A stretch of DNA of 64,000 nucleotides from a virus (lineage: Duplodnaviria > Heunggongvirae > Uroviricota > Caudoviricetes). Below the pieces are notes generated by a model. It saw only the letters and a program-made list of their open reading frames with translations. It searched no databases and was not told where the DNA came from. The stretch lies in the IMG/VR virus record IMGVR_UViG_3300003324_000363, positions 17,571 to 81,570 of that record; one strand, given 5' to 3'. This document shows, piece after piece, positions 6,703 to 41,589 of this stretch (positions are counted from its first letter, which is position 1; each line of letters begins with the position of its first letter). The position numbers and the translations under genes were made by a program.

Positions 6703-7320
6703 TTAGAAATCTATAACTTGAGGCACTATGGCTGCATTTACAAATGTTATGCCATCTTGTATGTGTCTACCTTTACTCTCATGGATATGACCAAATACAT
6801 GCAGTTTAGGCTTTATTCTATCAATAACTTCTACCAGTAATGATATTGAGCCACACTTTTCACCAAAATGGTTTACATCTAAAATATTCATTGGTGGGCT
6901 ATGCGTTATGAGCACATCTGTATTTTTTGGTATCTGCTGCCAATATTTTTGTAATTCCTTCTCAAACCTGATATTGAATGCCATGCCACCAAACATTGGT
7001 TGCCATGGCGTTCCATAGAATTTTATGCCGTCTATTTCACAGCTAGAATCACGTAGATAGTGCACATGTGGGTACTTGTCTAAGATTTCTTTAAGTTCAT
7101 CAAATCTGTTTTGAAAAGCAAAATCATGGTTGCCAGCTATGAATGCAACCTCTTTGTAATATTGCTGATGCCCAGCCCAGTGTATAAAGTCAGCACATTC
7201 TCCAAATCCACCTGTTGCACTTACATCGCCAGCATGAACAAGTATCTTGCCTTCCGGCCAATATGTTTCCCTATATCTATGGCTACTGTGGGTATCAGAA
7301 GCTAAAACTAACCTCGTCAA
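6703..7320 (-). CDS. Calcineurin-like metallophosphoesterase
   Basis: The ordered motifs LVLASDTH, GDV, GNHD and GHIH are all present. Confidence 0.8.
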   Translation of the reverse strand: MTRLVLASDTHSSHRYRETYWPEGKILVHAGDVSATGGFGECADFIHWAGHQQYYKEVAFIAGNHDFAFQNRFDELKEILDKYPHVHYLRDSSCEIDGIKFYGTPWQPMFGGMAFNIRFEKELQKYWQQIPKNTDVLITHSPPMNILDVNHFGEKCGSISLLVEVIDRIKPKLHVFGHIHESKGRHIQDGITFVNAAIVPQVIDF

Positions 7321-17302: not shown

Positions 17303-17572
17303 TTAGCACGACCTCCCCATCATTGTGCCTAATGTGCCCGGATTTGTGCTGCGTAAGTCAGCTCTTATCAGCTCCAAGTAAAATGCTGGTAAACTTTCAA
17401 TCATGCTATTCATGCCAGTTTCTACCTGCTGCGGCTTTTGCCCAACTTCAATAACTGGGAACTTTATTCTGCTGTTGTATGCAACCTGTGCATACTGTGC
17501 CAGCTTTAACATCCTGCTGGTGATCTTTTGATCTTCACTGGAAAACTCGTTGTGCTTGAAAAGCTCACTCAA
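17303..17572 (-). CDS. Hypothetical protein, 89 aa
   Basis: ORF. Confidence 0.4.
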   Translation of the reverse strand: MSELFKHNEFSSEDQKITSRMLKLAQYAQVAYNSRIKFPVIEVGQKPQQVETGMNSMIESLPAFYLELIRADLRSTNPGTLGTMMGRSC

Positions 17573-20704: not shown

Positions 20705-20901
20705 TTTAGAATATCTGCCAAATCTGTATCTATAACATGGTTGTTGCTTCCCGGAGCTACCAAAATGAGTGATGCCTTACTGCTTCCAAGATAGTGTATT
20801 TCTTGAATTCGTTCCACTTTTCCAAAGTAAATACTCTTACGGACATGAATCTCTAGGACATCGCCAAGCAATTGTTTTGCACGTTCTACCGTCATTGTCA
20901 T
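20671..20901 (-). CDS. Hypothetical protein, 76 aa
   Basis: ORF. Confidence 0.4.
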   Translation of the reverse strand: MTMTVERAKQLLGDVLEIHVRKSIYFGKVERIQEIHYLGSSKASLILVAPGSNNHVIDTDLADILKWRIVSGEWET

Positions 20902-21341
20902 TATGCTAGTCTCTCTGGATGCTTTTCTTCAACATGGTCTACAAATGCAATTATAGCTCTCTGCCAAGTTGCCTCACTTTTGCCATTGTAAAAACTAGGC
21001 TGGAGACAACTTCCCATGCCGAATCTATAGCATTGTGCACAATCGCCAAAACGTGAAGACCATTCGCCACTACCATGATTAAACTCGCCCAGAACACAAG
21101 CTGCTACGTTCTTCATGCTGCCCCAATTTTTGCTGACTTTATTAGTTTTGTATCTGATTGCCCATATAGGACAAAGCTTGTAAAATTTCATGAATGTTTC
21201 ATATGGTACGCCACGAATATCTGTTGATGCTGGTGGCTTGTTTTTACCGTCAATTGTTAATTGTTGCCATTGCCCTTCCAACACATCTTGTGGAATTTGC
21301 AATGGCTGGATTTCTTCTGGCTCTTGCTCTAGCTTGCTCAT
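20901..21341 (-). CDS. Cys-rich paralog family member 5
   Basis: Shares FMKFYKLCPIWAIRY and CVLGEF...C.QC with its neighbours. Confidence 0.55.
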   Translation of the reverse strand: MSKLEQEPEEIQPLQIPQDVLEGQWQQLTIDGKNKPPASTDIRGVPYETFMKFYKLCPIWAIRYKTNKVSKNWGSMKNVAACVLGEFNHGSGEWSSRFGDCAQCYRFGMGSCLQPSFYNGKSEATWQRAIIAFVDHVEEKHPERLA

Positions 21342-21793
21342 TTGTTAAAGACCTCTGGGTGTGATATTTCCAAATGCTTTATGAATTCTGGTATTGCTTT
21401 ATCCCAATCAGTATAAATGCCATTTTTTGAATAAAGAAATCCTGTCACTTTTTTCAGTCCTTCTTTTTTTCTAGCCGTGTTGATATATTTACTCGCAGTA
21501 GTGCCGACATAGTACCCAAACCCATAGCACAAATCACAGCTACGCCACTTATCATCATGATCAAATGTTTCGCCAAGAACACACCTTGAACTGTCTGTCA
21601 TTTCACTGGTATGTCTATCATAAGATAAGTCATTTTCTGCAAATCTCTTTGCCCATTTAGGAGCTACTTTGTAGAATTTGGCAAAAGTTGCTGCATCAAC
21701 TCCTCTTACTGATTCTTGCTCTTGCACTGGCTGTGATGCAACAATTTCTTCTTCATGAATGATTTTGCTCATGCTCCAATACTCTCCAGCCAT
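21338..21793 (-). CDS. Cys-rich paralog family member 4
   Basis: FAKFYKVAPKWAKRF. CVLGETFDHDDKWRSCDLC. Confidence 0.55.
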   Translation of the reverse strand: MAGEYWSMSKIIHEEEIVASQPVQEQESVRGVDAATFAKFYKVAPKWAKRFAENDLSYDRHTSEMTDSSRCVLGETFDHDDKWRSCDLCYGFGYYVGTTASKYINTARKKEGLKKVTGFLYSKNGIYTDWDKAIPEFIKHLEISHPEVFNK

Positions 21794-22131
21794 GCTCCAA
21801 TTTCTTTGAATGGTGCGCCATGTATATCGTTTAGATGTATGATCATATGTTCTATTCTACTGCAGGCATGGTCACATTTAGGACAATTCCTATACACAGA
21901 TCGCAAATCTAGACCTGTCCCCATCAGTGCTAGAGTTATGTTGCCGAAATCTCCGTTAGAATCAGTAACCAGTGCTCCTATGGCACATCTTTTGTTCCCT
22001 TCCCTCAAAGTGCCAAAACATTGTTCGATTTTTGTTGTTTTTAGTATTTCACTTGCCTTTAGCTTCTTTTGCTCTAGTTCACAGGTTATTTCTAACGGTT
22101 TGATTTCTTCATCGTGGATTAGCTTGCTCAT
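21769..22131 (-). CDS. Cys-rich paralog family member 3
   Basis: CAIGALV...CPKCDHACSRIEHMIIHLNDIHG. Confidence 0.55.
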   Translation of the reverse strand: MSKLIHDEEIKPLEITCELEQKKLKASEILKTTKIEQCFGTLREGNKRCAIGALVTDSNGDFGNITLALMGTGLDLRSVYRNCPKCDHACSRIEHMIIHLNDIHGAPFKEIGAWLESIGA

Positions 22132-22601
22132 AGTTTTCTCTCTCCCAAGTGAACTTCATTGTAGTGCTGTTCTAGCTGTGCCAACAATTCATCTACATTC
22201 AAAATGTCGCCATCAGACACGCCAGTGTATGCTGTTTCATAACTATAATCGCACTCCTCATCGTCATCACAATCACATTCATGTTCCCCATATGCTACTG
22301 CCTCCTTGTCTATCTCCCCTCCTGTTGCAAAATTTTCTTGATAATATGCCCATGCTCCAAACTTTTTAGATAGTGTGTCGCAAACTTCACAATCGCCACC
22401 ATCATGTCCAAGTCTAGCTTCCCCAACAACACATGCATGACAATCATGGGCTATTTTAGCAAGTTCTGTGTGTTTCATTAATCCTGCTTTTATTTTTGGA
22501 TACCAAGTTGGTATGATTTCTGCCAGTGATAGCTTTTTTTCTTGTTCCTCAATTGCCTTTCTGAACAGGTTAATGTCTTCATCGTATTTTAATTCACTCA
22601 T
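22128..22601 (-). CDS. Cys-rich paralog family member 2, with an acidic C-terminal tail
   Basis: CHACVVGEARLGHDGGDCEVC. Confidence 0.55.
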   Translation of the reverse strand: MSELKYDEDINLFRKAIEEQEKKLSLAEIIPTWYPKIKAGLMKHTELAKIAHDCHACVVGEARLGHDGGDCEVCDTLSKKFGAWAYYQENFATGGEIDKEAVAYGEHECDCDDDEECDYSYETAYTGVSDGDILNVDELLAQLEQHYNEVHLGERKL

Positions 22602-22999
22602 TTTGAATGCGCCTCATTCACATGTTCTACAGCACTGTTAATTAGAACGTCAAGATCAAGCAGGCCAGCATCATTGTGCGTTTTTACAGGTGTGTTAGCA
22701 TATATTCCCACTGGTACAGCTCTGTGTTGTTTCAGTGTCCCTTCATGTGCCCAGTAACCAAATGCCCTAGAAAGATCACAGCATGTTTCACATCTATCAG
22801 TATTTGTATAACCATCCCCGCCTCTGATCTCACCCATGATGCAAGATGCTGCTTCATTTTTCAATGTTCTTCTTTCTTCAGCTGTGATTTTTCCACGTTT
22901 CAACACTTTGCTCCATTTTGGTGCTAGCTCTTCAAACGTTTTGTAATTGCTTACAAAAGTTTTTACTTCTTCCTGTTGGCTTTCTAACACGGTTGCCAT
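22598..22999 (-). CDS. Cys-rich paralog family member 1
   Basis: FEELAPKWSKVL. CIMGEIRGGDGYTNTDRCETCC. An exact promoter 19-mer lies 25 nt upstream. Confidence 0.55.
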   Translation of the reverse strand: MATVLESQQEEVKTFVSNYKTFEELAPKWSKVLKRGKITAEERRTLKNEAASCIMGEIRGGDGYTNTDRCETCCDLSRAFGYWAHEGTLKQHRAVPVGIYANTPVKTHNDAGLLDLDVLINSAVEHVNEAHSK

Positions 23000-23234: not shown

Positions 23235-23466
23235 AATATATGTCCGTTCTTATTGGATTTTGAAAATCAACAACAACTCTTTTGTGGCATCTATCACATC
23301 TCATGGTGTAGTATTTTACAGCTCTAAAAAATTCATTGACTTCTTTTTCTGTTTCAAACATGCCTGTAATATTAGCATAATGCTTGTTCAATATGTGACA
23401 TTTTATCCAGTTCTTAATTTGCATCAAATACAACCTCAACATCACGGAATAGATAAGTTTTACCAA
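23218..23466 (-). CDS. Zinc-finger protein, 82 aa
   Basis: CH...CDRCHK. Confidence 0.4.
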   Translation of the reverse strand: MVKLIYSVMLRLYLMQIKNWIKCHILNKHYANITGMFETEKEVNEFFRAVKYYTMRCDRCHKRVVVDFQNPIRTDIYYDSEA

Positions 23467-23806
23467 CAGGAGTGTGCCCTAAACATTTGTATATTACACT
23501 TTTTGAACCTGCACTGTTTCCATCCCAAAAGGCAATTACTTTATCAGCATCTGTTATTATTTGATCATTACGAGTATGGTATTTACTTACATCATAGCCA
23601 TCATTAAAGTTTGGAGTGTAGCTTTCTGCATCTGTTTGAAAGCCAAGTGATTTTGCAATTTTGATAGCTTCAGTATCAACACCACGTGCCCCACCTGAAA
23701 TGATTTTTACATTTTCAGCATTGTAGATCAATCTTATCTCTTCCAATTTCTCTCTAACTTTCTTTATATTTTTAAATTCTCTAGAGCCTATAAAAGCTAT
23801 TATCAT
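23414..23806 (-). CDS. SLOG/DprA-like Rossmann-fold protein. Start adjusted to MIIAFIGSREF.
   Basis: Gly-rich loop ISGGARGVDTEA, as in DprA/Smf GxARGID, plus VIAFWDGNSAGSKSVI. The adjusted start abuts the NadV stop. Confidence 0.5.
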   Translation of the reverse strand: MIIAFIGSREFKNIKKVREKLEEIRLIYNAENVKIISGGARGVDTEAIKIAKSLGFQTDAESYTPNFNDGYDVSKYHTRNDQIITDADKVIAFWDGNSAGSKSVIYKCLGHTPVGKTYLFRDVEVVFDAN

Positions 23807-25203
23807 GATAGCAACTCCTTTTTCATTACTTCTATCTTGGCTTTCAACCCATCTGTTATGACACATGCTTCTTGTTCCCCTGTTTGAGCACGAACTCTGT
23901 TGTAAATATCAAGATATGATTGCTCGTATGTTTCATAAGGAGCATAGCCATCGTAGTTGTAGATTGTTTGGTACAAACTTTCACCATCTCTAAAGCCCAT
24001 TTTGTTACGTTCTTCTGTAGTCATCATTGTCATGAACTTGCCAACCATTTGTAATCCAACAATGCCCGGTATGCTTGTTTTGTCTTCTGCTAGCTTTATT
24101 CTATCCTTATTGTTGCTATACACTGTTTTCATTGCCCAGCCTAGCTCATCACGGTGGAATCTTTTAAAGTAGCCAGAACCTACTCCATATGAAACTTTTT
24201 CTAATGGTACTCCGTAAGCCTTAAACAACGTGTCTGCTTCTTTTATCTTTTCAAAATCCATGCCGTCACCAATGATGAATGCCACATGAGGCATCAATTC
24301 TGGATATGGTTTTAGCTTTTCCCACATTTGTATTACTTGAGCCACTGTATCGCCAGAGTCAGGTCTGAAAACAATGATATGATTCCATAATTTTGCTTCT
24401 TCTGCAATATGGATAAAATAATCACTTATGAAACGTTGAGCATTGAATGTGTCAATTACCATAGAGTATGTTGTTTCGCCAGCTTCACGCATTGCTTGTA
24501 TCTGATGCATGTATGCATACAGTTCATTATCAAATTGTTGTGTAGTTTTATGAGCTGATGCCGGTATGCTGCCTTTTGGCACTTCTTTAGGAATAAAACC
24601 ATATGTTAAACAGTCATCTGCACCCGGTAAACTTAGGTGCCATGCTAGATTAGCCCATATTGCATCTTCTATGCTGCGTTGTGCACGCCAGCCAAAGCTA
24701 TGAATACGCCATTCTGATAGTTTTTGACTGTCCAAATACTTACGCATCAGAAATGCTTCTGTGGCACAATTTGATGGGAAATAGCAATGCATGAATGCAC
24801 CTTCAAACCAGCTGACTAGCTCACCAAAGCCTTCAACTGTGTTAGCAACACTTGCAAAAGCTGTGCCTTTAGGCACCCATGTGCCATCAGGTACTGCTTC
24901 GACAGATAATGGAATGTATGCCCCACATTCATCAATAACTCGATACCATAGATCAGCATTGAAACGTTTTGCACCAACCTTTTCTTCTGCCTCTCTTACC
25001 ATCTTGGTTGTTATTTTTCTATTGAGAATGTCTATAACAGTCCAGTTTAGACCAAACAGAATCATGGGTTGGTTACGATTGAACATGTTAGATATTTCCC
25101 AATCTGTGTTGATTTTTAATTTCTCATGCCCAAAGTTGTAGTAATCTGTAAGCAATAATGGGTTTATGCCAAATGCATCAATTGGTATTTGGTATCTATT
25201 CAT
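23803..25203 (-). CDS. nadV: Nicotinamide phosphoribosyltransferase (NAMPT/NadV-like). Start adjusted to MNRYQIP...
   Basis: N-terminal NPLLLTDYYNFGH resembles the NAMPT N-terminus. It carries the PRTase-family signature FRPDSGD, a GVGSG loop, and is ~470 aa. Confidence 0.65.
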   Translation of the reverse strand: MNRYQIPIDAFGINPLLLTDYYNFGHEKLKINTDWEISNMFNRNQPMILFGLNWTVIDILNRKITTKMVREAEEKVGAKRFNADLWYRVIDECGAYIPLSVEAVPDGTWVPKGTAFASVANTVEGFGELVSWFEGAFMHCYFPSNCATEAFLMRKYLDSQKLSEWRIHSFGWRAQRSIEDAIWANLAWHLSLPGADDCLTYGFIPKEVPKGSIPASAHKTTQQFDNELYAYMHQIQAMREAGETTYSMVIDTFNAQRFISDYFIHIAEEAKLWNHIIVFRPDSGDTVAQVIQMWEKLKPYPELMPHVAFIIGDGMDFEKIKEADTLFKAYGVPLEKVSYGVGSGYFKRFHRDELGWAMKTVYSNNKDRIKLAEDKTSIPGIVGLQMVGKFMTMMTTEERNKMGFRDGESLYQTIYNYDGYAPYETYEQSYLDIYNRVRAQTGEQEACVITDGLKAKIEVMKKELLS

Positions 25204-25403
25204 GCCCTTCCCCTCGATGAAAAGAATGACGGATTGTATTGGAAAGAAAACCAAATATGGCATACTGGATTTCTACACATTACATTCCCTGCCTTATTGC
25301 CATCTTTAAAATAATGCCGAATTCTTGGAGCAGAATTACATACTTCACAAAGTTCTCCTTCTACATCTTCTATACGTTCCAAGTTGGCTGGATAAATTGT
25401 CAT
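25200..25403 (-). CDS. Zinc-finger protein, 67 aa
   Basis: CEVC...CRNPVCH. Confidence 0.35.
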   Translation of the reverse strand: MTIYPANLERIEDVEGELCEVCNSAPRIRHYFKDGNKAGNVMCRNPVCHIWFSFQYNPSFFSSRGRA

Positions 25404-25903
25404 TTGTTACCATCCTGCCATTTTTCATCAACTGTATTCCACTCTACGTTTAAAACTGGGCAGTATTTACTTTTCTTTGCTTTCAAGTATTCTATCATAA
25501 GATTTGGCTCGTGAACTTTTAGCTTATGCTCTCTTCTACGCCTTTTCCCAATATGAATAGAATCTACTAACTTGAATAATCTTTTTCCTGCCAATAGAAA
25601 GACCGTCATTGCTACAATAAAGCCGGCTGAATACCAGTCTTGCCTAGAAACGTCCCACGTAAATAACGCAGCATAAATTACAAGAGCAATAAACGTTATT
25701 GTTTGACCTGAAATGCTTAAAGTAGGCTTGGGAAATGCTCTATACATTGCAACAAATGGTGCAGTAACAACTGCAAGTACTACTGACCAGAAATATGGAC
25801 AGAGGTTTATTTGCCTAAGTTTCCCATAGCTGAAGAAATAGTTAGCACCATACGTCCATGTTACTAGACGCATGTGCCAGTCTGTGCTTCTAATTGTTAT
25901 CAT
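25400..25903 (-). CDS. Integral membrane protein, 167 aa, with 3-4 transmembrane helices
   Basis: Several hydrophobic segments. Basic C-terminus. Confidence 0.5.
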   Translation of the reverse strand: MITIRSTDWHMRLVTWTYGANYFFSYGKLRQINLCPYFWSVVLAVVTAPFVAMYRAFPKPTLSISGQTITFIALVIYAALFTWDVSRQDWYSAGFIVAMTVFLLAGKRLFKLVDSIHIGKRRRREHKLKVHEPNLMIEYLKAKKSKYCPVLNVEWNTVDEKWQDGNK

Positions 25904-28844: not shown

Positions 28845-29092
28845 CTTGAAATTCCACCAGTGTCTCTATTCAACATTTCCATAAATTTTGTCTTGGTGTT
28901 TTTTAGTAATTCTTCAAGCTGCATTGCTTCCTCGTTGTTGACATAATCTATATCTAGCACATTGCAAAATTTACGCATTATGAAATCTATATCTTCAGCT
29001 TTCATGTTAGTCTTGAGCAATTCATTCATGGCAGTTAGTGCTCCGAATCCATACCCAATCATAAATCCACGTTCTAAGGTGTTTTCAGTCAT
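28841..29092 (-). CDS. Hypothetical protein, 83 aa
   Basis: ORF. Confidence 0.4.
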   Translation of the reverse strand: MTENTLERGFMIGYGFGALTAMNELLKTNMKAEDIDFIMRKFCNVLDIDYVNNEEAMQLEELLKNTKTKFMEMLNRDTGGISR

Positions 29093-30185
29093 CGTCTTTC
29101 TTTTCCTCTCCTATTCCACCTTTGCCAATTGAAATCTTGACATCAGAGTATGGATGGTTTGGTGAGTCAACTATTTTTATAACCCGGTTTATTCCTGCCT
29201 TTCGTATGTAGATTCTATATGTGCTTGAATGTGCAACCACGTTGCCGCCAGTTGGCTTTATTGGATCGCCAAACATTACATCAGGACTTGCCATTACTTG
29301 ATTTGTAAATAGCACAAGTACGCCATATACATGGGCAATGTTTGTTAGGTGGTGCAGCAGCTTTTCCAGTCTATTCTGTCTGTCATACAATGTGCCACGA
29401 CCTGAAAACTCGGCTCTGTGTGCTGCAATTATACTATCAATAATCAGCATCTTTGTACCATATTCTGATACCCATTTGCCTAGCTGTTTTACTGTAAGCT
29501 CTAGATTGCTTGCATTAAGTATTCTATTGACGTATATCTTTCCTAGTGTTTCTTTTGCATCCATCCCATTTGCTTCTGCAATTTCAACAATTCTCTCTGG
29601 TCTAAATGTACCTTCTGTGTCTAGAAAGATTACAGAATTGCTACCTAGACCGCCTTGCTCTACTGGCTTTAGTGCACGTACTGCCAAACTATGTGCAACT
29701 TGTGATTTGCCAGAGCCAAATTCGCCATATATTTCATAGGTAGAACCTACTTCAAACCCACCTTGCAGCAAAGTATCAAACTTTTCTGAACCAGTTTTCA
29801 GCCTAAGTAAGCTGTTCCTTCTTTCATATTCTGCTGTAGCTGGCACAAATGACTTGCCAATGATTTCTTTTTCTCTAAGCCAGTCTTGTGCTTGCAGAAT
29901 TAACTGCCCGGCTGCTTCACGTTTCAAGTTAACATTATTTATCAAGTCTTCTGGATTGATAACAGCAAGATCAGGAATAGTTTCAACACCCATTACTTTT
30001 AGCTTCTTTACTACAGTTGGTGATATTTCAGGCAATGCCTTTACACTCAATTCTTTCAAATCTGTAGCTGTAGCTTCTATCCTTTCCTCTTCTACCTTTA
30101 CCTGTTCAACTTCTTTCTCTTCAACAACGGCACGTTTTGTATATTTTCGTTTTACTCTACCTTTAGGCAACGGAACATACAACAA
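29085..30185 (-). CDS. radA: RadA/Rad51-type recombinase. N-terminal helix-hairpin-helix domain plus RecA core.
   Basis: Walker A GEFGSGKSQ, then DTEGTFRPER, Walker-B LIIDSI and an N-terminal LKVMGVETIPDLAV HhH region. There is no in-frame ATG near the N-terminus. The listed start is TTG. Confidence 0.8.
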   Translation of the reverse strand: MLYVPLPKGRVKRKYTKRAVVEEKEVEQVKVEEERIEATATDLKELSVKALPEISPTVVKKLKVMGVETIPDLAVINPEDLINNVNLKREAAGQLILQAQDWLREKEIIGKSFVPATAEYERRNSLLRLKTGSEKFDTLLQGGFEVGSTYEIYGEFGSGKSQVAHSLAVRALKPVEQGGLGSNSVIFLDTEGTFRPERIVEIAEANGMDAKETLGKIYVNRILNASNLELTVKQLGKWVSEYGTKMLIIDSIIAAHRAEFSGRGTLYDRQNRLEKLLHHLTNIAHVYGVLVLFTNQVMASPDVMFGDPIKPTGGNVVAHSSTYRIYIRKAGINRVIKIVDSPNHPYSDVKISIGKGGIGEEKKDDD

Positions 30186-31198: not shown

Positions 31199-31617
31199 TG
31201 ATAGTAGTCGTATGTTGATAGATTCTCGTATCCTACACAGCTAAATGTATAGACTTTTCCAGTTTGTATCTTGCTAAACTCAATGTCGATGTTTGTGTTT
31301 AGAAAGTGTGTTTCACGCAATTGTATTACTCTATCATTGTGAGTGATAATATCTTTGCCAGACACCAAGTAGTATGTCACCTTGTTTTCTGGGTCAACCC
31401 ATGTCTTTGTCACATTCATCTTGATGGTAGTTGGCTTTATGTCTGTGCTTACCCAATGTGTTAGTGCCCAATAGATGCCAAATGCTATTGCAGCAACTAT
31501 ACCTATGGCGATTATTTTTCCTATCAATTTGGTATCTGTGCTCCTTCTTGTAAGCTTTTCAAGTCTAGTAAGAATGGTGCGTTTCCACTCATAACAACAG
31601 GCAACTTCCCGTCCCAA
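31183..31617 (-). CDS. NfeD-like membrane protein (one transmembrane helix plus a C-terminal beta domain), partner of the SPFH protein. The start is uncertain and probably lies downstream of 31524.
   Basis: A transmembrane helix IIAIGIVAAIAFGIYWAL is followed by a ~90-aa beta-rich domain. It sits immediately after the SPFH gene. The first 31 codons overlap the SPFH C-terminus. Confidence 0.4.
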   Translation of the reverse strand: MGREVACCYEWKRTILTRLEKLTRRSTDTKLIGKIIAIGIVAAIAFGIYWALTHWVSTDIKPTTIKMNVTKTWVDPENKVTYYLVSGKDIITHNDRVIQLRETHFLNTNIDIEFSKIQTGKVYTFSCVGYENLSTYDYYQCVVA

Positions 31618-32435
31618 CGCTGCACTTCTAGGTAATGGACGTATTCTGGACTTTGCTTTAATTGTTCGTTGATCAACTTGATTGACTCTGCCTGTCCCTG
31701 TGCTTGAGCTATTGATGCATCTCTTTGACCATTGGCTGTTGCTACGGCTTGCTGTGCTTCAAATTCTACCTGCTTTAACTTGTTTTGTGCTTGTAATGCA
31801 TTCTGCTCTGCTGTTACTTTAGCTTCAATAGCTTGATTGAATTGGTCACTAAAGTCAAAATGTGTGATAAGCACTGAATCAATTATGATGCCTCTATATG
31901 ACAAATCATTAGTCAGGGTGCTTTGTATTGCATCTTTTACTTGCTCTCTTTTTGTAATAAGTTCATCTGCATTGAACTTGGCAGTATTTTGTTTTGTAGC
32001 TTCCTGTATTGCAGGAGCAATAAGCACTGATTCATAGCCTGTTCCTACATCATGGTGTAACTTTGGTGCTTGACTTCCATCAATATGATAGTTGATTGTA
32101 ATTTCTGTTTGAACTGTCTGCAAGTCATTGCTAGCTGATGATGAATTAGCAGATATTTTTTGTACTTTTGTGTTATAGATGTGAACTTCATCTTGAATTG
32201 GTGTTACCTGATGAATTCCACTTCCTAATGGCTGACAATAAATAGGTTCATTTGTCTTATCGTCTTTGCCACAAATTGGAACATTGCCCCATTGAGTAAC
32301 AACTCCAACTTCACCTGTACCTACACTTCTAATTGTTGAAAATGACACAGCTACAATGGCGATTACTACCACCACAGCAATGCCTAAAATTACAAATTTG
32401 GGAATATGAAAACTGCCAGAATCCCTTTTACTCAC
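31524..32435 (-). CDS. SPFH/band-7 (stomatin/prohibitin/HflC-like) membrane protein
   Basis: N-terminal transmembrane helix, then GEVGVVTQWGNV, AKFNADELITKREQV and the Ala/Gln-rich coiled coil AIEAKVTAEQNALQAQNKLKQVEFEAQQAV typical of SPFH domains. Confidence 0.7.
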   Translation of the reverse strand: MSKRDSGSFHIPKFVILGIAVVVVIAIVAVSFSTIRSVGTGEVGVVTQWGNVPICGKDDKTNEPIYCQPLGSGIHQVTPIQDEVHIYNTKVQKISANSSSASNDLQTVQTEITINYHIDGSQAPKLHHDVGTGYESVLIAPAIQEATKQNTAKFNADELITKREQVKDAIQSTLTNDLSYRGIIIDSVLITHFDFSDQFNQAIEAKVTAEQNALQAQNKLKQVEFEAQQAVATANGQRDASIAQAQGQAESIKLINEQLKQSPEYVHYLEVQRWDGKLPVVMSGNAPFLLDLKSLQEGAQIPN

Positions 32436-33152: not shown

Positions 33153-33659
33153 TCAGCTTTCAAAAGGCATCCTCACTCTTGTTTTAGTAACAATGTGTTT
33201 GTCAACATCGTTGTAGGCATATAATTCTCCATTGTATGTGCATTTATAGTTGTAGCCTTTTGGTAATCCTGTAACATCATGGTAGAATTCACGTTGTTCA
33301 CGTTTAATGTAAACATTTTCTAGCTTGCCATCCAAGTTTTTTACCCTATCCCTAGTCTTGCCCATAAACCAAAATGCAAGAATTGAACGTCTAACAATAT
33401 ACCCACCTGCAAAGAATTCACAAACATCATTGCATCTTTCTACCTGTTCGGCAGGAACATGAGCTTCAGTTGATTGTGTACTTTTACATTCTATTGACAT
33501 CAATACTCTTACTGTATTATTTACAGCAACCAAATCTGGGAAATCCGTACCACTGCTACCAAGTCTTTTACAAGCATAGCCTTTTGTTTCATTGAATCGT
33601 TTTCTTAATTTGTATTCCCACGCATAGCCACGTTGCCTTCTGATATGCCCAACTCCCAT
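33153..33659 (-). CDS. hjc: Holliday-junction resolvase Hjc-like PD-(D/E)xK nuclease
   Basis: GYAWEYKLRKRF...RLGSSGTDFPDLVAVNN...IECKST matches the Hjc pattern (G.A.E..L...G..SG..PDLV, then E.K). Confidence 0.6.
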   Translation of the reverse strand: MGVGHIRRQRGYAWEYKLRKRFNETKGYACKRLGSSGTDFPDLVAVNNTVRVLMSIECKSTQSTEAHVPAEQVERCNDVCEFFAGGYIVRRSILAFWFMGKTRDRVKNLDGKLENVYIKREQREFYHDVTGLPKGYNYKCTYNGELYAYNDVDKHIVTKTRVRMPFES

Positions 33660-33665
33660 TATTTA

Positions 33666-33884
33666 TTACACTCTTACCAACTTTAGTAGCTTGACTGCAC
33701 GTTGTCTGCATCTTTTGTTTCTACCACGTGTTCGTAAGCTGAAATGGCAACATGGACAGTTTCTACCATCCCATGCCAAGAATATTTGGCAGACAGTGCA
33801 TCTTTTGTAGCCATCGGCATAATATCCAGTATGATAGCCTAGCTTTTTTGCTTTGTATCTAACACACAGCCCATTGCATGTCAT
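33666..33884 (-). CDS. Zinc-finger protein, 72 aa
   Basis: CNGLC...CTVC...CPCCH. Confidence 0.45.
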   Translation of the reverse strand: MTCNGLCVRYKAKKLGYHTGYYADGYKRCTVCQIFLAWDGRNCPCCHFSLRTRGRNKRCRQRAVKLLKLVRV

Positions 33885-35317
33885 GCCGTATCTCTCCTTT
33901 TGCTTAGAAATGGTGCTAGACGGTTCTTTGCAATTTGTATATAGTCTTTGTTTAGCTCTATTCCTACAAAATCTCTACCTAGCTTTGATGCAACTAAGCC
34001 AGCTGTACCTGCCCCAAAGAATGGGTCTAGCACAATTCCGGGCTTTGTATTTGCATTTTCACAATCACAATCTGGATAGTATTCTCCTACCTTTCTTATG
34101 ATTGTCTGTCTGAATTTTGACAAGTCTGAATTATGCAATCCTTTATTTGGATCGTCATCTGTACCACTCTTCATTGTTCCTGTATTCTTACCGGGTCTTG
34201 TGTTAACACGTTTTTCTTCCATGTTTCTTATCCATGGCTTGTTACATATTGTGCAAATTTTTATTGGACAGGTTGCCAGAATTGGTGTTACACATAATGC
34301 TTCTGGGAATACTGCCGTATGTTCCATGTGAAATGATTGTGTTGTTATATCCCACACGCATCTTTTGATCCGTCCAAACAGCACCGGTGCCCATGGCTTT
34401 CCAGAGTATGTTGGGTTTCCATACAATGCTGCTTTGTTTCCTCCAAACTTTGGCATTTTCTTTGCGTATGTTCCGTCAATACGCATTCTGTGTGGGTTGT
34501 TTTGTCTGTGTGGCTCTTTACTGTTTGCACCAGTGTTTGCCAATATTGATTTAATGATATTCCTTTTAGCATCTGATGGATTTTGTGCATTTGCTGATTT
34601 GTAATCTTTTGTTGCCTGTCCTTTGTAAGCTTTTTTTATTTCTTCTAATGTTATGGAACTGTATGGCTCATACTGTGTTTCAAAATAATAATCATCGTCC
34701 TTTACAAACCATAAGATGTATTCCCAATCACGTGTAAAGCCACGTTTATCACTCTGAGGCATTGAATTTGGCTTCTTCCAAATTATCTCACGTTTCAGCT
34801 TCCAACCACTAGCTTTCATTCTGAACCCAAGTGCTGCTGGGATTTGTTGCAAATCACCATCTATCATTTTATCACCCATGTTCACCCAGAAACTGCCTGA
34901 CTTTTTCAGCACTCTTCTGATTTCATCAAATATTTGCATCAAATGGTCAAGATACAAACATACTGTTGGTTCTTGCCCTAATTCGCCATACCAACCACCA
35001 CAGTCTAAGCAAGTGCTATATGAAATTTCAGTATCTGGAACTGGTTCTTGTTCACTATATTTCCCACTCTTTTGTGCATCACCACGACCAGAATGCAATT
35101 TTGTTATTTTCTTTGCTTGTGCAATGTGTGGACAATCTTCAAATTCATCCCACCATTGCAAATCTGTATGATAACTACGCATCCTGTAATAAGGCGGACT
35201 TGTTATGCACATGTCTATGGATTCAGATGGCAACTGCTTCAGGATAGCTAAAGAATGTCCTTGATAGATATGATTTCTAATTAAATCTTGATTGCTCTGT
35301 TGTATTTCTTTTTGCAT
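33881..35317 (-). CDS. DNA amino-methyltransferase (beta-class, N4-cytosine or N6-adenine) with a large Cys-containing insertion
   Basis: Motif IV CITSPPYY is N-terminal and motif I LDPFFGAGTAGLVASKLGRDFVGIELNKDY is C-terminal. That is the beta order. SPPY is most typical of N4C MTases. Confidence 0.75.
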   Translation of the reverse strand: MQKEIQQSNQDLIRNHIYQGHSLAILKQLPSESIDMCITSPPYYRMRSYHTDLQWWDEFEDCPHIAQAKKITKLHSGRGDAQKSGKYSEQEPVPDTEISYSTCLDCGGWYGELGQEPTVCLYLDHLMQIFDEIRRVLKKSGSFWVNMGDKMIDGDLQQIPAALGFRMKASGWKLKREIIWKKPNSMPQSDKRGFTRDWEYILWFVKDDDYYFETQYEPYSSITLEEIKKAYKGQATKDYKSANAQNPSDAKRNIIKSILANTGANSKEPHRQNNPHRMRIDGTYAKKMPKFGGNKAALYGNPTYSGKPWAPVLFGRIKRCVWDITTQSFHMEHTAVFPEALCVTPILATCPIKICTICNKPWIRNMEEKRVNTRPGKNTGTMKSGTDDDPNKGLHNSDLSKFRQTIIRKVGEYYPDCDCENANTKPGIVLDPFFGAGTAGLVASKLGRDFVGIELNKDYIQIAKNRLAPFLSKRRDTA

Positions 35318-35709
35318 TGAAATTCAATCTCCTCAATCACACCTTCATCGTCAGAAGCAGTCTCTTGTTTTGCTGATTTGTTAACGAGCCATTCTGTTGG
35401 TAGTCTTCCTGTCATAAGTCCATATTTTTCCCATAGTTGTGAATCACGAAAATCATCTTGTGCCTTAGCTTGTGTTGTTGTATGCCCTACATTGCCATCA
35501 ACTTCTAGCACTAATGTGCTATCAGCTTTCACTGCCAGCACATCAGCAATATATTCAATTTTTTGTACCGTTGGAAAAACATCAGGTACTTCAATTGCCG
35601 GCAGTTTGAATTCTAAAGATACAGACCAGCCTTTTTGCTCTAGAATATTTTTCAGTCGTAGTTTTCCAGTTAAGTGTTGGACACTTTCGCCACCATTGCC
35701 TCCTGCCAT
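35281..35709 (-). CDS. DUF559/Vsr-like PD-(D/E)xK endonuclease-domain protein
   Basis: IADVLAVKADSTLVLEVDGNVGHTT...DDFRD matches the DUF559 core (DF...LVIEVDG..H...D..R). Confidence 0.45.
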   Translation of the reverse strand: MAGGNGGESVQHLTGKLRLKNILEQKGWSVSLEFKLPAIEVPDVFPTVQKIEYIADVLAVKADSTLVLEVDGNVGHTTTQAKAQDDFRDSQLWEKYGLMTGRLPTEWLVNKSAKQETASDDEGVIEEIEFQCKKKYNRAIKI

Positions 35710-35761
35710 CCCACCGTCTTTCAGGAGAAAGCCAAGCTATAAATGTTACTATAGATTTTTA

Positions 35762-36025
35762 CTATACAGTTTTTGTATTAGCATCACTATATGAAACTAT
35801 AAAGCCATCACGTATTACAAGTTTGATCTTGTCTGTCTTTCTTGATAGCAAAAACAATTGTATGAAAGGTGTCAACTTGTTATCGAGAATAGCTTCATTT
35901 GTGGTTGTTGATAGATTGCTTGCAGCCACTGGCTTTAGCAAATCTTGCTTTTCAATAATTTCTTTAAGTTCGGCAATCTCTTCTAACAAGTCTTGACGAC
36001 TTCTCACATCATACGTTTCTGCCAT
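35762..36025 (-). CDS. Hypothetical protein. The track start is GTG, so I adjusted to the ATG (MAETYDV...).
   Basis: ORF. A 23-nt AT motif lies upstream. Confidence 0.35.
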   Translation of the reverse strand: MAETYDVRSRQDLLEEIAELKEIIEKQDLLKPVAASNLSTTTNEAILDNKLTPFIQLFLLSRKTDKIKLVIRDGFIVSYSDANTKTV

Positions 36026-36213
36026 AGATAGACCAATCCAGCTGGCAACTAATATACCCACTGTTACCCTAAAATTTTATATAAAATATCTTATATAAAA
36101 AATTATATATAGGATATTTGCATTGGTCTTTAGGAATAGTAATGAAGAAGCACATTGCCATTCCTGACATCCCAACCAGAGGTGTGGGATATTACTCCTG
36201 CACCTTTGGGTCT

Positions 36214-37026
36214 TTATCTCACGTTTAGCAGAATTTCATTCTCTCTACGTTTGTTGATACGGATTGCACTGCCCCACTTGCTTTGCAATCGTTTTATGCT
36301 TTCCTGCTCAATTTTAGCTGTTCTGTATTGCACAACTCCACCTTTGTTTGTATAATGTGCAAATTCAGCAAAAATATCATTGTTTCGTAATACTCCACCA
36401 TATTTTTGGATATGCTGTAGTGTATAATCATAGTCTTCCTTTGTCTTAAATTCTTCATCAAAGTAAAGTTCATTTGGCAACACCATTATGAAACTAGCTA
36501 TTATGAAGCTGGCAGTGTTGATTAGCTTTTTTGGATCAAAATAAAACAAATTTGTTGTAGGTGCAACACCTGCTAGCTTTATCATATTTTTCGTGTCTTT
36601 CAAACGAGTTCTCATCAATTCTACTGTAGATGCAAATGTTATGTCACATGTTGATTTTGTCAGTGTTTGTCCTTTTCCTAATGCTTCTGATGGTGCATCA
36701 AGCACTGTTGCAAGCTTTAGCTTTTTCAAGTCATCGTCAAGCATAACACATGGTATGTTTAATTTCCAAGCATCCTTTAATGCTTCATTTCTGCTATGGC
36801 ATAGCCCACTTGCAATCTTTATTTCTACATTTTCCAAATCATGCTTTGTGACTTCTGTTGTATAATCTCGAAGGTCTTGCTCATCAGCTACATACCATGT
36901 TGCACCACCATCTATTTTTTCATACATGTCTGCAACATTTTGAGGTCTTCTGTGGCTGACAATTGCTACAAAAGCATCTACATCTTTTCTATGCGTCATC
37001 TTCCTTTTCCTTTGTTCTGTCCTCAA
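36214..37026 (-). CDS. GT-A-fold glycosyltransferase-like protein, a candidate DNA glycosyltransferase
   Basis: An N-terminal beta-strand FVAIVSHRRPQN and a DxD motif CVMLDDD about 95 aa in. This layout is typical of GT2/GT-A enzymes. It sits next to a 2OG-Fe(II) dioxygenase. Confidence 0.45.
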   Translation of the reverse strand: MRTEQRKRKMTHRKDVDAFVAIVSHRRPQNVADMYEKIDGGATWYVADEQDLRDYTTEVTKHDLENVEIKIASGLCHSRNEALKDAWKLNIPCVMLDDDLKKLKLATVLDAPSEALGKGQTLTKSTCDITFASTVELMRTRLKDTKNMIKLAGVAPTTNLFYFDPKKLINTASFIIASFIMVLPNELYFDEEFKTKEDYDYTLQHIQKYGGVLRNNDIFAEFAHYTNKGGVVQYRTAKIEQESIKRLQSKWGSAIRINKRRENEILLNVR

Positions 37027-37969
37027 CTACTTCTTGGTTTATGGCACTTTCATATGGTATAACTTCACCTGCATCTAATCTACGTTTGACATTTTCCCCA
37101 ACTTTTCCAAACATTTTCATGACTTCTGGATTGTGTATGCCTCCCATTTTTGTAAGCTGCAATCTACGTTGTTCACGTTCTGTCTTTCGTTTTCTTATAC
37201 GTATGATTTCTTCATTGACTGTTTGGCATTTCCACATTTGTTTCAATGTATAGTAAACTATGGTGAATCTATAACCTTCTTTGCTAACTATTTTGAAAGG
37301 TGTGACACCATGCAGTATCTTTTGCCCATCAAAAAATAGCAAGCTGTGGTCAGCTATTTCCAATCCTATGTCATATGATGGTATAGAAAGATGCCCTCCC
37401 TTGCAATCTTTCTTGAATGCTACCATGTTGCTGTAAACATCATCAAAATTGCCAGCATCAAAGTGATACTTTAATGGGTTGTTCTTGTTAATGATTCCAG
37501 AAGTAAATGGTGTGCCTTCTATCACCCAATCTTTCTTTACTTTTTCATTTACAATGTCTTCATGTACTTTGAATATTTCTGGAGCATGAACCTTATACAA
37601 CTCTGTGCAAACCTTGCCAAATTCACATACTTCTGTATGAGTTTTTGGGTCTTCTCTTGCCAAGCTTACTGCACTGCAATAGTCTTTACGAATTGTTTCT
37701 CTAGGCATATAACCAAATATTCTGCTTGTTGTCCTAAGTCCCTGTGTTCTAAAATTGTAGCTGTATTTTATTTTAGCAATGTCTTCAACAAGTTCATGAT
37801 GGCTATCTGGCAAATTCAGATAGATTGCAATAAGTCTATCACCATCATAGATTTTGCATGGATAGTCTATGAATTGATGGTAGTCCTCATCAAGTGCCGT
37901 CCGTTTCTTATATTTAGCTAAATCTATTTCTCTATCTGTTACCCGTACTGTTTCAACCGTGTTGCTCAT
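36989..37969 (-). CDS. 2OG-Fe(II) dioxygenase-superfamily protein, possibly TET/JBP-like nucleic-acid base oxygenase
   Basis: HxD at KYHFDAGNF, a second His in ILHGVTP about 50 aa later, and an Arg in GYRFTIVYY about 10 aa after that. This is the spacing of the double-stranded beta-helix iron site. The DNA-modification context fits. Confidence 0.5.
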   Translation of the reverse strand: MSNTVETVRVTDREIDLAKYKKRTALDEDYHQFIDYPCKIYDGDRLIAIYLNLPDSHHELVEDIAKIKYSYNFRTQGLRTTSRIFGYMPRETIRKDYCSAVSLAREDPKTHTEVCEFGKVCTELYKVHAPEIFKVHEDIVNEKVKKDWVIEGTPFTSGIINKNNPLKYHFDAGNFDDVYSNMVAFKKDCKGGHLSIPSYDIGLEIADHSLLFFDGQKILHGVTPFKIVSKEGYRFTIVYYTLKQMWKCQTVNEEIIRIRKRKTEREQRRLQLTKMGGIHNPEVMKMFGKVGENVKRRLDAGEVIPYESAINQEVVEDRTKEKEDDA

Positions 37970-38591
37970 ATTTGTTCATCAGAAACAATACAGCATCTGT
38001 ATTTGACTCTAGTTTATTTTCTGCCATTATCTTTTCAAACTTTGTAAGCACTTCTTCATATTGCTCTGGCGTAAAATATAGGGTTATCTGTCTAACTGTC
38101 CCATGCAGATATGTATTCAATCTTGATTCTAATGGCGATGGATCTTTTGTAATCAGATTAGGAGAATCGGCATTGCCCATAAGAGCACGCATTGTTTCAA
38201 GTTCTGATTCATTTATACCAAGCAATGATTCCAATCTTGCAGCATCATTTTGCATGATAAGCTCCAACTCAGCAACATCCTTGTCAAGCTGGTGCTCACC
38301 ACGTAGCTTATTCATAGCCTGTCTTATGATTCTACGTTCAATATCATTTTGCACTTCGACTCTAACAACAGGTATGTTAGTTTCACCTTGTGCTTTCATA
38401 ATTAAAAATCTATGCTCACCATCAACAATAACATCATTCTGGTCAATAATTACTGGTTGTAAATAACCAAACTGTCTAATTGATTCTGCCAGTCCAGACA
38501 TCTGCTTGTCATTAAGCTGGTTTGGGTTGTCAGGGTCTAACTTTATGGTATTAACATCAACAATGTCAGTTTTATGGAATTTTATAGCCAT
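37953..38591 (-). CDS. ParB-like nuclease (ParB N-terminal/sulfiredoxin-fold) domain protein
   Basis: LQPVIIDQNDVIVDGEHRF matches the ParB box (L.P..V....ILIDGHHR). Confidence 0.55.
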   Translation of the reverse strand: MAIKFHKTDIVDVNTIKLDPDNPNQLNDKQMSGLAESIRQFGYLQPVIIDQNDVIVDGEHRFLIMKAQGETNIPVVRVEVQNDIERRIIRQAMNKLRGEHQLDKDVAELELIMQNDAARLESLLGINESELETMRALMGNADSPNLITKDPSPLESRLNTYLHGTVRQITLYFTPEQYEEVLTKFEKIMAENKLESNTDAVLFLMNKYEQHG

Positions 38592-39771: not shown

Positions 39772-41589
39772 TTAGCTCCAGAAATTGAGTGTAAGTTGAC
39801 CACGTGTTATGGCTCGTATATCCTTTCCCAGCAACTGGAGAATATCGCCAAATGCAGATTCAAATGTCTTCTCATACTCTTTTTTGTCCAAGTCATTAAA
39901 GCTGTTTACTTTAATTGCTACACCATTGTGGGTTTTCCAGTAATATACAACATCACCGGCACTGGCGTTTGCCATCTGCCCTAGCTTTTTGTTTTGGTTC
40001 TCACTTTCATAATCTTCCCAATTTCTTGTAAGCTTGGTTGAATAGAATAGCTGGTTCAAGCTTACATTTCCTGCTCTAAATTCATCGTATGTTGCCTGTA
40101 ACAGTGTTGATGGGTCTAAGCCATTTGCATAGTCACGTGTAAATTGAGCAAATGCTTCATTAATCCATTTTGGTCTATCGTTCTTTTCTGCCTCTATGCC
40201 AGCTACAACAATATCACCATCTTCTTTCACCCCTATGTAGTGTTTTTTGCCTGTAATCATAAATCTTGCATAAGTTTTGTCATGCTCCAATTCCAAGCCT
40301 AGTTTTGCCTTTACATCTTCGATTATCTTACGTGCAGTTTCAGCATCAGAATTAGGGAACATGATAGAATCAGTGTCGCCATATATTACAGTGCAGCCAT
40401 GTGTTTTTGCTATTTCAATAATCTGCATGATATAGTGGCGTTCAAATGCTATTATACTGTCATAACATCTTACATCTGAATATTCATAGTATGGATTGTT
40501 GAATAAACCTGTTTTTGCATTCATTACAATTTTCAAACCATCTGCCATGACTTTATTGCCATTCCTTTTATGCACCATTCTTTCCTCACGCATTTCTGTA
40601 AACTTGGTAGTTACTGCACCTTTCTTCTGTTTGCATGACCATAGCAATGGTTTGTTTGGTACTTTTGAAGATTCTAAATCCCTGCAACATTCACAGCACA
40701 TTGCATCTGGGCTTATGTTATGCTTTATGATTATTGATGGATACAAGCTTGCAACGTCAAGCACTACAACATTTCTATAGTCACCAACAACTGGCTCTAG
40801 CACTATCGGCCCTTGTCGTTTCTTACGTTTTCCATGAGCTGCATCATTTGGCATTTCTGGTCTAAATTCAATAGGTGTTTCTGGCATTTTCATGTCACGC
40901 AGTATCTTTCGCCAGATTGAAGACATGCCAAAGTTACATATGGTTTGAATTGGAAGTCCTGTTTTATCTGCTAAAGCATACATTAATTTCATTAACCCAT
41001 AGTCACGTTTTGGCATCTTTGTTTTCTTGTCTATATCGCCAACCTGTGCCAGCTTGAATGTTAGTCTAGCATCGTTTAGACAGTATTCTTTCTGCTTTTC
41101 AACGGTCATTGATTCGGCAGTTGAACCTGTAATGCCTTCTGTCTTACCTTCACCTAGCAATGCTTTAGCTACACTTTGCAGTTTTTGATCTTTGTATCTC
41201 TTTTTGAAAATATAGTTTCTTACTACACCTTTATCAAATATCATAAACAGGTCAATATGTGTTCTTCCATGTACTGGCTCTGGAAGCATACGTTGTATCT
41301 TTCTAGGATTCACTATTGAACTTAGGTGATATTTTTGACACCTTTGGTGTAGCACATCAAAGTCTGACCCTTCACCAGTTGTATAGTAGCCAATGGTTAA
41401 TGGGTACTTCATTATTTTCTTGTTTATCTTTTCTAATAGTTCCTCTTCATCTGGGAAATCATCTAGATGGTAAACATCTTCATTGCCCATGTCGTCAACA
41501 AAAGCAGCACAATACAACTCCCCTGTTTTCTTCCATTCAAAGTCGAAAGCTGCATAGTTTTCAAAATTGTTAAAGCTAGACATTATCAT
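39772..41589 (-). CDS. polB: Family-B DNA polymerase. Start adjusted to MIMSSF... (the track start is 41715).
   Basis: Exo I FDFEW, Exo II YYTTGEGSDFDVL, Exo III YCLNDARL, motif A LDVASLYPSII, motif B KIVMNAKTG and motif C YGDTDS are all present. Confidence 0.9.
   Translation of the reverse strand: MIMSSFNNFENYAAFDFEWKKTGELYCAAFVDDMGNEDVYHLDDFPDEEELLEKINKKIMKYPLTIGYYTTGEGSDFDVLHQRCQKYHLSSIVNPRKIQRMLPEPVHGRTHIDLFMIFDKGVVRNYIFKKRYKDQKLQSVAKALLGEGKTEGITGSTAESMTVEKQKEYCLNDARLTFKLAQVGDIDKKTKMPKRDYGLMKLMYALADKTGLPIQTICNFGMSSIWRKILRDMKMPETPIEFRPEMPNDAAHGKRKKRQGPIVLEPVVGDYRNVVVLDVASLYPSIIIKHNISPDAMCCECCRDLESSKVPNKPLLWSCKQKKGAVTTKFTEMREERMVHKRNGNKVMADGLKIVMNAKTGLFNNPYYEYSDVRCYDSIIAFERHYIMQIIEIAKTHGCTVIYGDTDSIMFPNSDAETARKIIEDVKAKLGLELEHDKTYARFMITGKKHYIGVKEDGDIVVAGIEAEKNDRPKWINEAFAQFTRDYANGLDPSTLLQATYDEFRAGNVSLNQLFYSTKLTRNWEDYESENQNKKLGQMANASAGDVVYYWKTHNGVAIKVNSFNDLDKKEYEKTFESAFGDILQLLGKDIRAITRGQLTLNFWS

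Follow-up and report, generated by a model that had tools for sequence, protein, structure and literature searches.

The window analysed here comprises 64 kb (64,000 nucleotides, positions 17,571 to 81,570) of a 99,684-bp viral source contig, IMG/VR record IMGVR_UViG_3300003324_000363, and encodes at positions 23414-25203 a nicotinamide phosphoribosyltransferase of the NAMPT family (NadV) directly followed by a small SLOG-fold protein. The long open reading frames (ORFs) of the window are without exception on the minus strand, as are all window genes and motifs given below. A first-pass annotation had proposed that the two genes form a possible NAD+ (nicotinamide adenine dinucleotide) salvage or anti-depletion module. 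Both ORFs are present where it placed them, and their matches reflect strong homology rather than chance motifs. Judged by sequence, NadV adds a new and divergent member, from an archaeal virus, to the known viral NAMPT family, without an Nmnat partner in the window, and the small protein belongs to the already described YAcAr SLOG family. The two genes adjoin each other specifically in this genome and are neither an obligate module nor a conserved pair.

NadV and its SLOG-fold neighbour

The 466-amino-acid (aa) NadV protein (23803-25203) matched entries in Pfam, PHROG, NCBIfam and the PDB. These included Pfam NAPRTase (PF04095; E = 2e-13, 51 bits against a gathering cutoff of 20.8), PHROG 448 'nicotinamide phosphoribosyl transferase' (E = 6e-54) and, in the PDB, NAMPT itself (1.8e-25, with the catalytic residues aligned). 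The score against NCBIfam PRK09198 (9e-47, 160 bits) is far under the equivalog cutoff of 405 and the clade is divergent, so equivalog naming of NadV is not justified. NAMPT_N (PF18127) reached 16.5 bits against a cutoff of 25; many 45%-identical homologues carry PF18127, and the alignment of NadV to human NAMPT begins at residue 13 and takes in D16/Y18. The start codon at 25203 is preceded by GAGGGG and agrees with the N termini of homologues, with an alternative ATG upstream at 25263. We found 303 homologues, of 455-475 aa and with query coverage of 95-99%, which together with the NAPRTase score and the FRPDSGD and GVGSG motifs bears out the first-pass description of a full-length NAMPT. The closest homologues, 57% and 55% identical, come from uncultivated contigs and are followed by proteins of Paenibacillaceae and Nitrososphaeraceae at 42-47% identity.

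When NadV is aligned with human NAMPT (PDB 6tac), the residues checked at the sites for phosphoribosyl pyrophosphate (PRPP) and nicotinamide are all present. The FRPDSGD motif (24349-24369; NadV aa 279-285) places R280 and D282 at human R311 and D313, and the GVGSG loop (24172-24186; aa 340-344) aligns with the human GSGGG phosphate-binding loop. Further identities pair human D16/Y18 with D20/Y22, F193/R196 with F170/R173, D219 with D196, H247 with H218, G353-D354 with G312-D313 and R392 with R351. The PRPP-site, nicotinamide-site and autophosphorylated-histidine (H247) positions are conserved in NadV and invariant across the 36 homologues of the family alignment. By this homology and residue conservation NadV would be a catalytically competent NAMPT; its activity and, as discussed below, its purpose are inferred.

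To place NadV among its relatives, we drew on 30 viral loci anchored on NadV (~21 of them non-redundant), in which neighbours were examined to 10 kb, and 34 cellular loci from Paenibacillaceae, Bacillaceae and Nitrososphaeraceae. A scan of viral contigs with the single NadV sequence gave 0 matches, and the viral loci were recovered with a NadV alignment instead. Firmicute and phage members of the clade lie directly upstream of a gene for NMNAT, a nicotinamide mononucleotide (NMN) adenylyltransferase (Pfam CTP_transf_like), in 19 of the 30 viral loci and in ~20 genomic loci, usually with a Nudix gene as well. None of the archaeal-side loci, which comprise the window, L013-16, L020-22, L028 and metagenome-assembled genomes (MAGs) of Nitrososphaeraceae and Thermoproteota, has an adjacent NMNAT or Nudix gene. 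In a rough neighbour-joining tree, the window gene with those of L013 and L014, the genes of L020 and L028, and the Nitrososphaeraceae/Thermoproteota MAG genes stand apart from the Firmicute/phage group. Within the window, phmmer detected no NMNAT with five phage NMNAT/NadM queries and no Nudix protein with four Nudix queries (E <= 1 in both cases), and none of the larger ORFs scanned with Pfam has a CTP_transf_like or NUDIX domain, in line with the first-pass view that NadV stands beside something other than its canonical NMNAT partner.

These features relate NadV to one of two NAD+ reconstitution pathways (NARPs). It resembles the Nampt of NARP2 (phage Nampt plus Nmnat, as in KVP40 NadV/NatV) in being a NAMPT-family enzyme with a conserved active site and in belonging to a clade with NMNAT/Nudix downstream. 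It differs in that no Nmnat or Nudix gene is found in the window or beside archaeal-side NadV genes, the host is probably archaeal and the downstream gene encodes a SLOG protein; by comparison, 94% of the phages with a Nampt also carry an Nmnat gene (Osterman et al. 2024 preprint). Unlike NARP1 (Adps plus Namat), the window has no Prs-like Adps beside its NAPRTase-family gene, and a comparison of the window ORFs with the ICP1 Prs-like protein gave no match at E <= 10. Because Prs/Adps is missing from the window and the clade is tied to NMNAT, we would place NadV on the Nampt (NARP2) side of the family rather than the Namat side, and rejected its assignment to NARP1 as a Namat acting with Adps.

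The downstream ORF (23414-23806; 130 aa) encodes a minimal, stand-alone SLOG-fold protein of the YAcAr/DUF2493 type that is DprA-like, hereafter SLOG. It matched Pfam YAcAr (PF10686, formerly DUF2493) with E = 1.5e-7 and 31.6 bits, above the gathering cutoff of 28.2, and PHROG 289 at 1.4e-16. Its score against Pfam DprA (PF02481; 4e-6, 26.5 bits) is just under the cutoff of 29.6, and that against the DprA model TIGR00732 is 17.7 against a cutoff of 191. Among the families that the first-pass annotation had named for this ORF, DUF2493/YAcAr was thus matched above its cutoff and DprA narrowly missed. The GGARGVD glycine-rich loop on which that annotation had based its SLOG-type label is at 23675-23695 (SLOG aa 38-44), as described, and is shared with the DprA SGGAxGxD motif. 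The start at 23806 fits homologues beginning MKIAIIGSR. Family members stand alone and are 110-130 aa long; PF10686 is present in most of the 120 listed homologues, and the next relative after an identical protein is 51% identical. Invariant in the family are G7, R9, G38, G39, A40, G42, D44, R79, N80, F93, W94, D95 and S98, with the Gly-rich loops after strand 1 (G7 S8 R9) and strands 2-3 (G38 G39 A40 G42 D44) invariant or nearly so.

We can confidently assign the small ORF a SLOG Rossmannoid fold, as the first-pass annotation had expected of a Rossmann protein. Comparison values were 12.5 for YpsA, 12.1 for ShosA, 11.6 for both DprA and the Moco carrier protein, 10-11 for LOG enzymes and 10.4 for the SLOG domain of ThsA with 3'cADPR (a cyclic ADP-ribose). 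The last of these is the Thoeris sensor of 3'cADPR, to which SLOG is 14% identical in sequence; by analogy, SLOG may serve as a phage sponge of a 3'cADPR-type signal. The protein keeps the phosphate-binding GSR, GGARGVD and RN elements together with a family-specific invariant FWD. Assignment to the LOG-type phosphoribohydrolases, which would supply ribose-5-phosphate for PRPP, was rejected: the catalytic Glu of PGGxGTxxE is missing, and the family motif FWDGxSxGT(K/R)xxI(D/x) has no conserved Glu at +2/+3 after GT. Because this Glu is missing, a role as binder or sponge is more likely for SLOG than LOG-type glycosidase activity. We also rejected SLOG as a substitute for NMNAT, as it has another fold and no HIGH-type motif, and as DprA by model, as it falls under the PF02481 and TIGR00732 cutoffs and corresponds to no more than the core of the DprA Rossmann domain (200+ aa). 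Binding or processing of an adenine-nucleotide or ADP-ribose-type ligand is tentatively its most likely function; as a second mechanism we keep DprA-like binding of single-stranded DNA (ssDNA), which we consider less probable.

The viral YpsA-like/YAcAr SLOG proteins described by Burroughs, Iyer and Aravind resemble SLOG in Pfam family, size class, stand-alone form, fold and predicted link to NAD+/ADP-ribose. The contexts published for them are fusions to Macro, NADAR, Nudix and DUF4326 domains or neighbourhoods containing these, and the accessible text of that work does not mention direct adjacency to NadV or a tailed archaeal virus. A homologue is also encoded by ORF11 of a Nitrosopumilaceae spindle-shaped virus (L207, BK067783.1; 3971-4411), with 41% identity over 88 aa; it sits among small ORFs in a 30-kb genome that has no NadV.

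The NadV-SLOG adjacency in other viruses

NadV and SLOG share an ATGA stop/start overlap (23803-23806; NadV TGA at 23805-23803, SLOG ATG at 23806-23804), and AAGGAG, resembling a Shine-Dalgarno site, lies ~10 nt upstream of the SLOG ATG, inside the 3' end of NadV. The two genes are probably co-transcribed and possibly translationally coupled. The same ATGA form recurs at 17 or more other junctions of the window, so the overlap is not special, a point against reading the pairing as a module.

To assess the conservation of the pairing, we examined loci anchored on either gene. The two closest relatives of NadV, represented by four loci (L013-L016), have no SLOG gene within 8 kb, and one of these loci (L014) has other window genes in shared order. 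Nor is a SLOG gene found within 10 kb of NadV in the related archaeal-type viruses L020-22 and L028, which hold RadA, a zinc-finger protein and a metallophosphoesterase (MPE) in common with the window. SLOG lies within 10 kb in 7 of the 30 NadV-anchored viral loci (5 of ~21 when redundancy is removed) and is directly adjacent in none (0), the nearest instances being 510 bp (one gene; L034) and 817 bp (two genes; L031) away; in both, SLOG is upstream of NadV-NMNAT-Nudix genes. None of the 34 cellular NadV loci contains SLOG. From the SLOG side, a metagenome scan that represents a sample rather than a census, and did not pick up the source contig itself, yielded at least 175 loci (161 non-redundant, 2.17 Mb). 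A NadV-family gene was found in only 2 of the 175, 9 kb from SLOG in L052 and contiguous with it in L102, where the order is a 345-aa Nudix-containing protein, SLOG and a bona fide NAMPT. The closest SLOG relatives (L017-L019) have no NadV. We found no domain fusion of NadV and SLOG among the listed homologues of either, and a blastn search for named isolate phages with the gene order of L031 or L102 returned fragmentary matches only.

SLOG near NadV in 5 of ~21 loci exceeds the ~4% expected for a 20-kb neighbourhood, in a rough calculation on loci that are phylogenetically related. With the window excluded, 4 of 7 NadV-SLOG distances are < 3 kb, which is not significant (p ~0.13). Published base rates are high: for medium and jumbo phages respectively, Iyer et al. 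2022 (PMC9503650) give 19% and 31% with SLOG and 22% and 33% with NadV, so some co-location of the two is expected. The co-occurrence that the first-pass annotation had anticipated therefore holds for some loci and does not extend to a conserved module. What stands of its NAD+ salvage module is a real adjacency, a competent-looking NAMPT and loose links; the pair itself is not conserved, and its ATGA junction is routine for this genome. At most, small SLOG genes show a loose, recurrent tendency to sit in the nucleotide, PRPP and NAD neighbourhoods of large viruses.

Several loci illustrate this tendency. In L052 (7773-11364), a T4-like viral contig, SLOG is located between the genes for the large (NrdA) and small (NrdB) subunits of ribonucleotide reductase, with an NMNAT-Nudix-like gene (NatV) 5 kb and NadV 9 kb downstream. 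A ribose-phosphate pyrophosphokinase gene (Prs) follows ~500 bp downstream of a small SLOG gene in L153 (10001-11784), on a 464-kb metagenomic contig, and in the L006 group a Macro-domain gene is 2 kb from SLOG. Iyer et al. 2021 and 2022 (PMC9503650) predict a role for viral YpsA-like SLOG domains in sensing or degrading ADP-ribose derivatives within an NAD+/ADP-ribose network, and record YAcAr fusions to Macro, NADAR and Nudix domains. A SLOG partner for NadV, which had been called unusual, is therefore less so, and the adjacency is consistent with, and no proof of, the published idea of SLOG proteins in NAD+/ADP-ribose conflict.

The first-pass annotation had also pointed to an MPE at 6703-7320 as a candidate nucleotide-processing accessory. 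This 205-aa protein is a real MPPED2-like MPE (Pfam Metallophos, E = 7e-12; mammalian MPPED2 in the PDB, 1.3e-35) and is matched along its full length by PDC-S10, a defence-candidate model of PADLOC (9.8e-69). It thus resembles both MPPED2/class III cyclic-nucleotide phosphodiesterase-like MPEs and PDC-S10, and is here encoded by a virus. In the window it lies 16 kb from NadV; homologues adjoin NadV and SLOG in other viruses, which lends the first-pass suggestion support that had not been expected. Those with 34-35% identity are directly downstream of NadV in L020-22 (11434-12099 in L020) and one small gene downstream in L028 (11598-12242), and further homologues are found in L068 (10369-10971) and L202 (10894-11328). 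An MPE of the same or a second type is 0-1 kb from a small SLOG gene in L003, L005-8, L068, L119 and L202 and 2-2.5 kb from SLOG in L081, L098 and L102; where SLOG and an MPE are both within 10 kb, 9 of 11 pairs are < 3 kb apart. Each of the pairings NadV-SLOG, NadV-MPE and SLOG-MPE is found as neighbours, in different viruses. This is the best, and a suggestive, argument for a looser functional network, drawn from an uncontrolled comparison, with the MPE as a possible dispersed third component.

The virus, its probable host and neighbouring genes

Pfam scans identified genes for an MCM helicase, a family-B DNA polymerase (PolB), a Rad51/RadA recombinase and an Hjc resolvase in the window, which also holds a block of structural genes. 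RadA (29085-30185), Hjc (33153-33659), PolB (39772-41715) and MCM (42676-44766) make up a replication and recombination set of archaeal type. Among 50,697 GenBank phage records, MCM matched archaeal viruses only, and RadA is ~50% identical to its counterparts in Candidatus Nitrosocosmicus, Candidatus Nitrosopolaris and further Nitrososphaeraceae; its top matches include no named organism outside this family. On the basis of this gene similarity and the presence of PolB and Hjc, the window probably derives from a novel tailed virus of archaeal type without a close sequenced relative, whose host is probably among the soil ammonia-oxidizing archaea of the Nitrososphaeraceae. Megablast of the locus against GenBank phages gave no nucleotide match, tblastn with the likely capsid protein gave no match and scans of the window for tRNAs and tandem repeats returned nothing relevant.

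Two genes upstream of NadV (25200-25903), chained by ATGA junctions, are probably part of its transcription unit. They encode a 67-aa Cys-rich protein (25200-25403) and a 167-aa membrane protein (25400-25903) of PHROG 944, in the 'moron/host takeover' category; Pfam and PHROG scans of this gene pair detected no NAD-related function. An SPFH/Band-7 membrane protein (31524-32435) is encoded in the same early-type region as the PHROG 944 protein. Immediately downstream of the NadV-SLOG pair are five tandem paralogous genes (20901-22999) for proteins of 120-157 aa that are 26-38% identical, have an invariant CxxC...HxxxxH pattern and match no Pfam or PHROG entry. A DNA-modification cluster (33881-38591) encodes an N6/N4 methylase, a CoiA-like nuclease domain, a TET-associated glycosyltransferase, a TET/JBP dioxygenase and a ParB-N protein, suggesting that this archaeal virus may carry hypermodified cytosine (glycosylated 5-hydroxymethylcytosine). 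Short AT-rich tandem repeats of 14 bp occupy the intergenic gaps at 45531-45627 and 36071-36111; one closely follows the MCM operon on its downstream side and could serve as a promoter or origin of replication.

Explanations for the locus and their implications

On balance, we favour the explanation that this archaeal-type tailed virus carries two co-transcribed accessory genes, for a NAMPT and for a SLOG protein that may bind or process a nucleotide ligand, that do not form an obligate module. NadV would convert nicotinamide and PRPP to NMN, and the last step to NAD+ would be left to the host NMN adenylyltransferase. As no NMNAT is found in the window or the archaeal-side loci, the simplest interpretation is that the virus contributes the NMN-forming step only. 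NAD+ may thereby be raised or restored during infection, either as a general metabolic boost or as an offset to NADase-type defences. Three points weigh against this explanation. The search for NMNAT covered the 64-kb window, and the remaining ~36 kb of the source contig could hold a viral NMNAT. The independent recurrences of SLOG near NAD genes could mean a tighter functional link. The commonest neighbours across the SLOG family are DNA-centric, namely an Arc-like ribbon-helix-helix (RHH) protein, a C5 cytosine methyltransferase and a ParB-N6/N4 methylase fusion, with DUF4314 and a GGACT-like protein also frequent (each in 9-27 of the 161 sampled loci, probably from few lineages).

One possibility, and among the alternatives the one that we consider strongest, is that NadV is an ordinary auxiliary metabolic gene taken from a Nitrososphaeraceae host for NAD+-hungry replication, with no defence role, and that SLOG is an unrelated moron. 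Stand-alone genes from MAGs of Nitrososphaeraceae and Thermoproteota fall within the NadV clade, related viruses retain NadV while its neighbours change, and NadV matches no defence or anti-defence model in PADLOC. However, in bacteria, members of this enzyme family from NARP2 have been shown to defeat Thoeris, DSR and SIR2-HerA (Osterman et al. 2024 preprint), and several of the MAG contigs are short and could be viral themselves. Metabolic and anti-defence purposes are also not mutually exclusive.

The DNA-centric neighbours, together with the retention of two DprA/ShosA arginines, make an ssDNA-binding role for SLOG a serious alternative. SLOG would then be a stripped-down, DprA-like recombination mediator working with the viral RadA, Hjc and nuclease, its adjacency to NadV being incidental; we regard this as doubtful. 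SLOG has in common with DprA and ShosA the Rossmannoid core, the arginines of GSR and RN and the SGGAxGxD loop, and the SLOG-family profile matched DprA structures at 9e-10, with Pfam DprA and weak PADLOC matches to PsyrA and ShosA pointing the same way. The invariant R9 and R79 align with HpDprA R52 and R143 and ShosA R139 and R234, arginines needed for ssDNA binding and antitoxin function. In L018 (2030-3042), among the closest relatives (48% identity), SLOG has a 4-bp overlap with a gene for a 218-aa PD-(D/E)XK-like nuclease with a C-terminal Cys cluster, and a RadA gene 2 kb away encodes a protein with 50% identity to the RadA of the window. DUF2493 also forms the C-terminal domain of the ICP1 SF1B helicase HelB, and some GenBank annotators label SLOG-family proteins as ssDNA-binding. 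Yet at 110-130 aa these proteins reach about half the length of the Rossmann domain of DprA, and they lack the dimerization and RecA-binding parts and other DprA domains, and SLOG scores under both DprA cutoffs. Its isoelectric point is near neutral (6.7), the equivalent of HpDprA R170 is not conserved in the family and the invariant FWD is absent from DprA. The fusion of one family member (P0186) to DUF4326, and the Macro, NADAR and Nudix fusions in the literature cited above, likewise do not fit a DNA-binding role.

It is unlikely, in our judgement, that NadV and SLOG represent a true NAD+/ADP-ribose conflict module, in which SLOG would sequester or cleave an ADP-ribose-derived molecule (a cADPR-type immune signal or its breakdown product), the MPE would open its phosphodiester or pyrophosphate bond and NadV would rebuild NAD+ from the nicotinamide set free, countering Thoeris- or SIR2-like defences. 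Such a module is predicted by Iyer et al. 2022, and would account for the 4-bp overlap of NadV and SLOG with its Shine-Dalgarno-like site, the three neighbour pairings (NadV-SLOG in the window and L102), the short SLOG-MPE distances, the Macro, Prs and Nudix genes near SLOG genes and the match of the MPE to PDC-S10. Against it, the nearest relatives of both NadV and SLOG are without the pairing, NadV is rare among the sampled SLOG-anchored loci, NadV-SLOG distances are not skewed once the window is set aside and the window MPE is distant. Moreover, both genes are common in large phages. Wider still, and improbable on present evidence, is a dispersed three-part counter-defence toolkit of NadV, YAcAr SLOG and MPPED2-like MPE in archaeal and bacterial viruses, with SLOG capturing or de-glycosylating ADP-ribose-derived immune signals, the MPE opening them and NadV re-making the NAD+ precursor. 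A toxin-antitoxin pair like ShosTA, which likewise combines a PRPP-using phosphoribosyltransferase with a DprA-like protein, was rejected, as NadV has no PADLOC match, the match of SLOG to ShosA has E = 0.003 over 56 residues and ShosT is a type I phosphoribosyltransferase toxin unrelated to NAMPT.

The rebuilding of NAD+ against NAD+-depleting immunity was established recently, and has been described for bacterial viruses with both Nampt and Nmnat. That a group of archaeal-type tailed viruses keeps a stand-alone NadV suggests that NAD+ supply may be contested or limiting in the infection of soil nitrifiers. DUF2493/YAcAr SLOG proteins are very common in phages, and their contexts (NadV, NMNAT-Nudix, Prs, ribonucleotide reductase, Macro and MPE genes on the one hand, DNA methylase, ParB and nuclease genes on the other) narrow the candidate functions to binding of an ADP-ribose-type nucleotide or DprA-like binding of ssDNA. 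The three-part toolkit, if true, would give the large DUF2493 family its first assigned function, and would be the first anti-defence system centred on NAD+ among viruses that infect ammonia-oxidizing archaea.

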